This document shows positions 17,302 through 18,220 of a stretch of 64,000 bases of DNA, in pieces. The notes below the pieces were generated by a model that searched no databases, was not told the DNA's origin, and saw nothing but the letters and a program-made list of their open reading frames with translations. A program made the translations under genes and the position numbers. Every line of letters starts with the position of its first letter. Positions within the stretch are counted from its first letter, which is position 1. Source of the stretch: Escherichia coli (GTDB taxonomy: Bacteria > Pseudomonadota > Gammaproteobacteria > Enterobacterales > Enterobacteriaceae); assembly GCF_003334765.1 (NCBI RefSeq), contig NZ_QOWT01000004.1; one strand, given 5' to 3'.

Positions 17302-17777
17302 CTTAGATGTCCGGTATTAAGTAAGTTGCACACACAATAATTTCGTCTTCAATTAAGATCTGCTTAACTAAAGAACGCTCGCTATTATTCAGATAATTCA
17401 AAATGAGCGTGGCTGTGATGATAGGAATTATGTTTTTTACGTGAATGAGAATAATCTTAAATGAGGAATAACTCATTGATTGACAATATTTTTATTCAAG
17501 AAGTGTCATTGACTGTTAACGCAATGTTGTAAAGGTAAGATAATCTGATTTATCAATATTATTGTGTGATTTTTATGTGAGCAGAAGATATTCATCAGCA
17601 ACGATTACATTAGTCATTTTATTTTGCCGACGGCCTCATTGTCGAAAGATAAGCGTACGACAGTATTATCAGAAAAGAGTGATTTTTTATCCAACTACAC
17701 TTCAGCGCACTGCGTGTAAAAAATGCCTCTTTCTTATGCGGGATATCATCATTTCATCATGATGTCTTTGGTGAGCG

Positions 17778-18220
17778 GTGAACACAATACACCTGCGCTG
17801 TCTCTTCAGGATGAATCCCCTGGTCTGGTGCCTGCGGGCTGATGTTGCAGCAGAGCTTAGGTCACTTAGACGCTACTATCATTTATCCAATGGCATGGAA
17901 TCGAAATCAGTCGATACCCGCAGTATATATCGTGAACTGGGTGCAACGCTGAGTTACAACATGCGCCTGGGGAACGGTATGGAAATGAACCCTGGCTGAA
18001 GGCGGCTGTGCGCAAAGAATTTGTCGATGATAACCGGGTGAAGGTGAATAATGACGGTAATTTCGTCAATGATTTGTCGGGCAGACGTGGAATATACCAG
18101 GCAGCTATTAAAGCCTCATTCAGCAGTACGTTTAGCGGACATCTCGGGGTGGGGTATAGCCATGGTGCCGGTGTGGAATCCCCGTGGAACGCGGTGGCTG
18201 GTGTGAACTGGTCGTTCTGA
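17778..18220 (+). pseudogene. ycgI: autotransporter/outer-membrane beta-barrel remnant ycgI
   Basis: Two ORF fragments in different frames (17778-17999, 18008-18220); the second ends with the beta-barrel C-terminal signature (...GVNWSF). Confidence 0.55.

Follow-up and report, generated by a model that had tools for sequence, protein, structure and literature searches.

The ycgI pseudogene of Escherichia coli K-12: a deletion relic of a YpjA-like adhesin gene beside two annotated small genes, ymgI and ymgJ, that are probably not protein-coding

Genes and features of the locus

The window, as the term is used here, is the whole analysed stretch of 64,000 nucleotides of E. coli DNA; all positions refer to it unless stated otherwise, and a window position is obtained by subtracting 1,205,687 from the MG1655 coordinate. 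The 1,351 bases around the locus described below are 100% identical to those of the E. coli K-12 strains W3110 and MG1655. The features of the region are listed in Table 1, along with lesions found in other E. coli alleles; loci from other genomes (and the ypjA locus of K-12, L020) are designated by L numbers where they have to be told apart.

The stretch upstream of ycgI had been described as AT-rich and as the place of the very small genes ymgI and ymgJ. Positions 17300-17700 indeed have a GC content of 30-33%, and both genes are annotated there in the curated MG1655 record. The ycgI pseudogene (b4521) is annotated at MG1655 1223564-1223907, which is window 17877-18220; the coordinates of the K-12 pseudogene and of the feature in the window are identical and nothing differs between the two. 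Since the K-12 annotation places a pseudogene at these very coordinates, the feature is already catalogued. The RefSeq pipeline calls it a fragment of an autotransporter beta-barrel, frameshifted and with its N-terminus missing. Literature searches for ycgI, ymgI and ymgJ gave passing mentions only.

Table 1. Features of the ymgD-minE region, neighbouring autotransporter loci and lesions of the remnant in other E. coli alleles (window positions)
Feature	Position	Strand	Source or remark
ycgH (b4491)	13914-16561		Broken in K-12 by a frameshift and an internal stop
ymgD	16618-16953; 16618-16947	-	RefSeq pipeline; curated MG1655 record, start 6 nt shorter
ymgG	16957-17301	-	Curated MG1655 record
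Predicted ymgGD promoter and 110-nt 5′ UTR	17302-17445	-	5′ UTR from 17411 down to 17302
ymgI (b4593)	17303-17476	-	Curated MG1655 record, 57 aa
Putative orphaned promoter and leader of the lost autotransporter gene	17523-17877	+	Paralogue of the 355-nt upstream region of K-12 ypjA
ymgJ (b4594)	17577-17762	+	Curated MG1655 record, 61 aa, GTG start
39-aa hypothetical ORF	17723-17842	+	Automated RefSeq pipeline only
ycgI pseudogene (b4521)	17877-18220	+	Annotated in MG1655 and W3110
Intrinsic-terminator-like hairpin	18226-18259	+	Core AAACUGCGC-UUCG-GCGCAGUUU, followed by UCGUUU; just behind the ycgI stop
Weaker terminator-like hairpin	18316-18299	-	About 225 nt beyond the minE terminator
minE terminator	18567-18540	-	minE's own
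minE	18592-18858	-	Curated MG1655 record
ycgV	47398-50265	-	Open 955-aa ORF
Alleles L005, L006 and L007	17892		One base missing
Alleles L006 and L007	18151		A further base missing
Alleles L004 and L008			No frameshift in the remnant
Allele L009			A further 271 bp deleted inside the remnant

Reading frames and homology of the ycgI remnant

Two ORF fragments in different frames had been noticed in this region, and both are present: 17778-17999 (73 aa, GTG start) and 18008-18220 (70 aa, GTG start). The second one ends with ...GVNWSF, as originally pointed out, and through the intact protein described below this terminus lines up with the ...YRYSF end of the BrkA translocator; a C-terminal outer-membrane-protein signature with a final aromatic residue is thus present in the ycgI remnant. 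In tblastn searches the two pieces showed 95% and 89% amino acid identity to the C-terminal end of an autotransporter of 1,124 aa whose gene is intact at the same locus in another strain. The frameshift-corrected product of 114 aa matched PF03797 at positions 152-254 of 255 (E-value 2e-10) and TIGR01414 at positions 319-432 of 432 (E-value 2.3e-21). Similarity to beta-barrel domains, whose absence would have spoken against the original prediction, was thus clearly found by tblastn as well as with both domain models, and it is no product of chance.

The borders of the remnant are not those of the two ORFs. Homology to autotransporters begins at 17877, not at 17778, the first 33 codons of the 17778-17999 ORF being derived from the 5′ leader of the lost gene, and the original frame continues from 17987 instead of from the GTG at 18008. 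The ycgI pseudogene corresponds to the last 114 codons and the stop codon of a YpjA/EhaD-like AIDA-type autotransporter gene and spans approximately the last 40% of the beta-barrel translocator; its nucleotide identity to an intact allele (L002 9001-9819) is 94%. The complete 12-stranded translocator domain (PF03797/TIGR01414) is not encoded by the K-12 remnant, where the match is partial and is obtained only upon frameshift correction.

The frameshift itself was mapped by multiple alignment with seven other E. coli alleles (eight in all). In K-12 one T is missing after 17986, with ATT GAA turned into ATG AAC and an in-frame TGA following at 17997-17999.

We also considered the GTG at 17778 as the true, extended start of the intact gene. 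This candidate was rejected, because a GAGGA ribosome-binding site precedes the annotated ATG and a normal signal peptide comes after it; in addition, the upstream frame contains a stop in E. albertii.

The intact gene and its relation to ypjA

In strain WP4-S18-ESBL-07 an intact gene (1,124 aa) lies at this site, in the interval from the ymgJ region to minE; strains JMK_KBN3987 (1,132 aa) and ET201 (1,124 aa) have it at the same locus too. The existence of this gene at the same locus bears out the original prediction that ycgI is the tail of an autotransporter gene which lost its 5′ part and then acquired a frameshift. According to Pfam, the intact protein of L002 carries several AIDA repeats, a Pertactin domain, a Pro/Asn-rich (PN repeat) linker and a full PF03797 domain at 863-1102; the intact beta domain can be aligned over its full length with the translocator of BrkA, whose structure is solved.

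The closest kinship is with ypjA. The intact protein is 80% identical to K-12 YpjA over 1,010 residues, and at the DNA level the intact gene and ypjA share ∼93% identity over the 3′ 2.5 kb, with 87-89% identity of the upstream leader. Because the protein, the 3′ DNA and the leader all match ypjA, the unit made of leader, gene and stop is a ypjA paralogue. The K-12 remnant is itself 95.5% identical to the 3′ end of K-12 ypjA, and its leader (17523-17877), which in L002 and L018 runs on into the intact gene, is 89% identical to L020 8112-7757. Within the same genome, window 17523-18230 as a whole is paralogous to the K-12 ypjA locus (L020 8112-3137).

Automated annotation has given the name ‘ypjA’ to the intact minE-locus gene as well. 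Surveys of adhesins could thus count ypjA twice or misassign it: the minE-locus paralogue, being ∼92% identical to ypjA, could be miscounted as ypjA in strain typing too. As a separate observation, an IS1 element lies directly upstream of the intact autotransporter copy in ET201 (L019 1748-2510). The region from pdeG to ymgJ is absent from that strain, and the native leader of the autotransporter gene has been lost there with it.

The 3,060-bp deletion

When K-12 is aligned with L002, the window sequence ending at 17877 pairs with L002 sequence ending at 5941, and the sequence starting from 17877 pairs with L002 starting from 9001. The same joint, 17877/17878, is seen in the alignment with L018, whose left flank is 99.4% identical to K-12. 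The segment missing from K-12 amounts to 3,060 bp (1,020 codons), with the T shared by both edges counted once, this single T being the entire microhomology (1 nt). Its left edge is situated 29 nt upstream of the lost ATG. The deletion took the GAGGA ribosome-binding site, the ATG and the MNRTSRYYFHRSVLSLLIAAMIYAPPGMTA signal sequence; the passenger domains (AIDA repeats and the pertactin-like autochaperone region) lie wholly inside the missing 3,060 bp, and so do the PN repeat linker and approximately the first 60% of the translocator barrel. Since the left edge precedes the ATG, everything from the ribosome-binding site and start codon through the signal peptide, passenger and linker to ∼60% of the barrel is gone. 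As to the opposite direction of change, insertion of the gene into an empty site of the K-12 type, no target-site duplications or mobile-element ends were seen at 17877.

The ycgI pseudogene thus originated by a single deletion from a YpjA-like gene. The course of events was as follows. An AIDA-I-type (type Va) autotransporter adhesin gene, a close paralogue of ypjA/EhaD, once stood between ymgG and minE, with an upstream region of its own of ∼350 nt and a terminator. One deletion of 3,060 bp then fused the orphaned leader to the last 114 codons, with the terminator left behind them. Positions 17523-17877 would accordingly represent the leader of a deleted gene, presumably purposeless now.

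One may ask whether K-12 ever had the full gene at this site, the leader and the tail having instead been copied piecemeal from ypjA. Both pieces do show 89-95% identity to the K-12 ypjA locus. However, they abut exactly where 3,060 bp are missing in comparison with the intact genes present at the same site in 425 genomes; one of the undeleted genomes is the one with the nearly K-12-identical left flank, and the region beyond 18230 is locus-specific and continuous with the intact alleles. We regard piecemeal copying as extremely improbable and retain the single deletion as the origin of ycgI.

Downstream spacer and terminators

The intrinsic-terminator-like hairpin behind the ycgI stop has a predicted stability of −17.9 kcal/mol (z-score −6.1), and none of 200 shuffled sequences was as stable. 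This hairpin is the terminator that the lost autotransporter gene left behind. On the opposite strand, minE has a terminator of its own.

In the 370-bp spacer 18224-18591 we also observed the second, weaker terminator-like hairpin of Table 1. Small ORFs of this spacer, such as a hydrophobic 22-aa one (18447-18515, minus strand), were considered as genes and dismissed, as their frames are broken by the many indels in which strains differ there. A scan of positions 16500-19000 against Rfam (E-value ≤ 1) matched no family.

Decay of the remnant and its distribution

Among the 5,426 complete E. coli genomes the K-12-type joint is present in at least 4,515 (83%). The number of genomes undeleted at the joint is 425 (7.8%), as counted by a query built in such a way that only undeleted alleles exceed 80% coverage; by subtraction, other states of the locus account for ∼490 genomes. 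Those of the undeleted genomes that were inspected encode an AIDA-type autotransporter of 1,124-1,132 aa. The lesions that followed the deletion differ from one allele to another (Table 1). Such differences between lineages are in keeping with a dead fragment that decays neutrally. Most E. coli genomes carry the deletion allele, which has decayed independently in separate lineages; in other words, an ancient in-frame deletion of 3,060 bp has become the majority allele of the species.

With an intact homologue at the orthologous site, the essential parts lost and the later lesions specific to lineages, ycgI has the properties of a pseudogene of the deletion-relic kind. In the alleles L004 and L008, which carry no frameshift, an ORF of 147 codons with a GTG start runs through the joint, because the deletion is in frame and the leader is open in the frame of the old ATG. 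This leader-barrel ORF has no signal peptide and encodes less than half of a barrel. A product with no signal peptide and about 5 of the 12 barrel strands could not reach the outer membrane or fold in it. We therefore infer that no product of the remnant could do so and that the function of the gene has been lost.

A remnant that is still in use could take the form of a non-coding transcript driven from the orphaned promoter and ended by the terminator, of a leader-barrel fusion peptide or of a patch for recombination with ypjA. Suggestive of some such use are the retention of both leader and terminator, the in-frame deletion with its 147-codon ORF in L004 and L008 and the high identity to the 3′ end of K-12 ypjA. 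Furthermore, in a filamentation screen the enrichment reached from minCDE into the ycgI homologue, for which the authors gave linkage to minCDE as an alternative explanation. Against this, the frameshifts differ by lineage and one strain has lost a further 271 bp, the whole unit is absent from three sister species, the product would have neither a signal peptide nor half of a barrel and the region matched no Rfam family. Continued use in any of these forms appears highly unlikely to us; ycgI is a known K-12 pseudogene, left by a deletion in a YpjA-like adhesin gene, and no function that it might still have is plausible.

The site has a history outside the K-12-like genomes as well. Window 17579-18589 has no counterpart in E. 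whittamii (L010), Escherichia sp. E1V33 (L011) and strain SCPM-O-B-8794 (L012, of a third GTDB species), where a spacer of ∼175 bp, unrelated in sequence, precedes minE. In E. albertii (L013) the slot is occupied by a different autotransporter, with ∼33% identity in the passenger. The site between ymgG and minE looks like an old and variable slot for adhesins, and it offers one more such slot for strain surveys.

The other states of the locus in E. coli include O157:H7: strain BB24-1 has a longer, 747-nt tail of the same gene (L003 8599-9345). The 747-nt tail abuts an island with ompT, IS66-family elements and prophage fragments; on the island side ymgD, ymgG and the ymgI/ymgJ region have been replaced.

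Open frames in the proposed leaders of ymgGD and of the lost gene

Four sister Escherichia species have an interrupted ymgI frame: every one of them shows a stop at the third or fourth codon, to which the loss of the ATG is added in E. albertii and a frameshift in E. whittamii. YmgG and YmgD of the same four species are 96-98% identical. Within E. coli, as far as the small counts allow a comparison, the ratio of synonymous to non-synonymous substitutions is 1:6 in ymgI versus 7:0 in ymgG, where all seven variable sites are synonymous and fall in third positions. Across species, the 3′ half of ymgI shows strong conservation at the DNA level, regardless of frame.

A promoter scan predicted a sigma-70-like promoter inside the ymgI frame, with a −35 element TTCACG (17445-17440) and a −10 element TATCAT (17423-17418), both on the minus strand. 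A 2026 preprint on OmrA and OmrB treats ymgGD as an operon with a 5′ UTR and does not name ymgI in its text. It makes use of a reporter fusion, ‘ymgG-110+90’, the origin of whose −110 start is not given in the text. The forward primer of this fusion begins at window 17411, a position downstream of both the predicted −10 element (by 7 nt) and the ymgI ATG at 17476 (by 65 nt). As the predicted promoter and the UTR start fall inside the frame, the ymgI ORF coincides with the promoter and leader of ymgGD. Expression of ymgG and ymgD is reported to be induced when the envelope is damaged by chemical agents, as is that of many Rcs-regulated genes. Positions 17302-17445 on the minus strand would thus be the promoter and the 110-nt 5′ UTR of the envelope-stress-induced ymgGD operon.

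The sequence abutting the predicted −35 element, TAAGATTATTCTCA (17459-17446, minus strand), bears what we take to be a resemblance to the RcsAB-box consensus. Matches of this kind with three mismatches occur at the chance level in the window (5 found versus 4.7 expected). As an Rcs binding site TAAGATTATTCTCA is not distinguishable from chance, and it is given here as a lead only.

The ymgG gene starts with TTG (17299-17301, minus strand; GTG in E. albertii) and lacks an obvious Shine-Dalgarno sequence. Over the 50 nt that precede ymgG there is almost no variation among the E. coli alleles and two sister species, with few differences in strain SCPM-O-B-8794 and in E. albertii. A nearly invariant upstream sequence combined with the lack of a Shine-Dalgarno sequence suggests that translation of ymgG is controlled at the RNA level; this upstream region is a reported target of OmrA/OmrB.

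Both ymgJ and the 39-aa ORF are situated inside the leader of the lost gene. Within E. coli, ymgJ has 4 synonymous and 10 non-synonymous differences, and the 39-aa ORF has 2 and 7, respectively (small counts in both cases). The ymgJ frame is frameshifted in the alleles L006 and L007, contains stops in E. albertii and in the paralogue upstream of ypjA and is absent from three sister species. The 39-aa ORF has ATA in place of its start codon in L005; its frame is open upstream of ypjA, and partly in E. albertii, and all five differences from the ypjA copy are non-synonymous.

No Shine-Dalgarno-like purine run was found upstream of the starts of the three frames, at 17476 (minus strand), 17577 (plus) and 17723 (plus). 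When the sequence 17302-17877 was shuffled with dinucleotide composition preserved, an ORF of at least 57 aa appeared in 48% of the shuffles and two such ORFs appeared in 11%. In the E. coli alleles none of ymgI, ymgJ and the 39-aa ORF showed an excess of synonymous or third-position substitutions. The names ymgI, ymgJ and ymgG had no match in the supplement of a small-protein ribosome-profiling paper.

The comparison of sequences suggests that ymgI is probably not a conserved coding gene and that the same probably holds for ymgJ. The two, together with the 39-aa ORF, appear to be frames that happen to be open in regulatory DNA and that evolve free of protein-level constraint. The view that ymgI and ymgJ are probably not protein-coding is based on this comparative evidence and, for the ymgG leader, on the design of one published construct.

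Arguably, ymgI, ymgJ or both could be genuine small proteins, young and specific to E. coli, with ymgI perhaps coupled translationally to ymgG; in a variant of this explanation ymgJ or the 39-aa ORF might act as an upstream ORF of the adhesin gene. Curators have retained both ymgI and ymgJ in the K-12 annotation. In each of the eight E. coli alleles examined ymgI is an open frame; its stop is 1 nt away from the TTG start of ymgG, a layout also known from translationally coupled genes. The 39-aa ORF is open upstream of ypjA too, and a lack of conservation is compatible with a young E. coli-specific peptide. Against this, the frames are broken in sister species, non-synonymous changes dominate the substitutions, ymgJ is frameshifted in two E. 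coli alleles and broken in the paralogous ypjA copy, none of the three starts is preceded by a Shine-Dalgarno sequence, the ORF lengths are at the chance level and the 5′ UTR of ymgG, as taken in the reporter fusion, starts only downstream of the ymgI ATG. We consider genuine small proteins unlikely here. An origin of newborn E. coli-specific micro-proteins (YmgI, YmgJ or the product of the 39-aa ORF) from the orphaned adhesin leader and the ymgGD leader, or a functional non-coding RNA made from leader and remnant, e.g. near the convergent minCDE, is very improbable; if true, it would be an instance in which the birth of a gene from the remains of a deleted one can be dated.

Taken together, ycgI as a dead relic left by one deletion and ymgI and ymgJ as open frames in regulatory DNA make up a reading of the locus that we hold, from comparative evidence, to be very probably correct. 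For the known ycgI pseudogene the analysis establishes how large the deletion was and where its joint lies, which base was lost in the frameshift, how frequent the states of the locus are in the population and from which gene the remnant derives. The sole addition of note is the doubt, at the level of curation, whether ymgI and ymgJ are genes. Both are carried in the K-12 reference, from which their names have been propagated to thousands of genomes, and a non-coding reading would be relevant to the lists of uncharacterised E. coli proteins that include both.

Comparison with known autotransporter genes

YpjA/EhaD (b2647) is an AIDA-I-type adhesin linked to biofilm formation, and it has the same domains as the intact gene of the ycgI locus: AIDA repeats, Pertactin, PN repeat and PF03797. 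The two differ in location, the ypjA/EhaD locus adjoining CP4-57 while the locus of the lost gene adjoins minE, and in the length of the passenger, which is shorter in the protein of the ycgI locus (1,124 aa for the whole protein versus 1,526 aa for YpjA/EhaD). Unlike ypjA, the ycgI-locus gene survives in K-12 as the leader and the last 114 codons only.

Two further autotransporter genes are located nearby. The original prediction counted three such loci in about 35 kb, two of them inactivated, and this count agrees with what is found over ∼36 kb: ycgI, the broken ycgH and the open ycgV. We observed that the strains in which ycgH is annotated as intact (L002 and L018) also keep the intact gene at the ycgI locus. 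Like ycgI, ycgH is an autotransporter gene that is dead in K-12 and intact in other strains (WP_001522908.1 in L002 and L018). The similarity between the two proteins is only ∼24%, and the manner of inactivation is different: ycgH is still of full length and carries a frameshift and an internal stop, whereas ycgI is the relic of a deletion.
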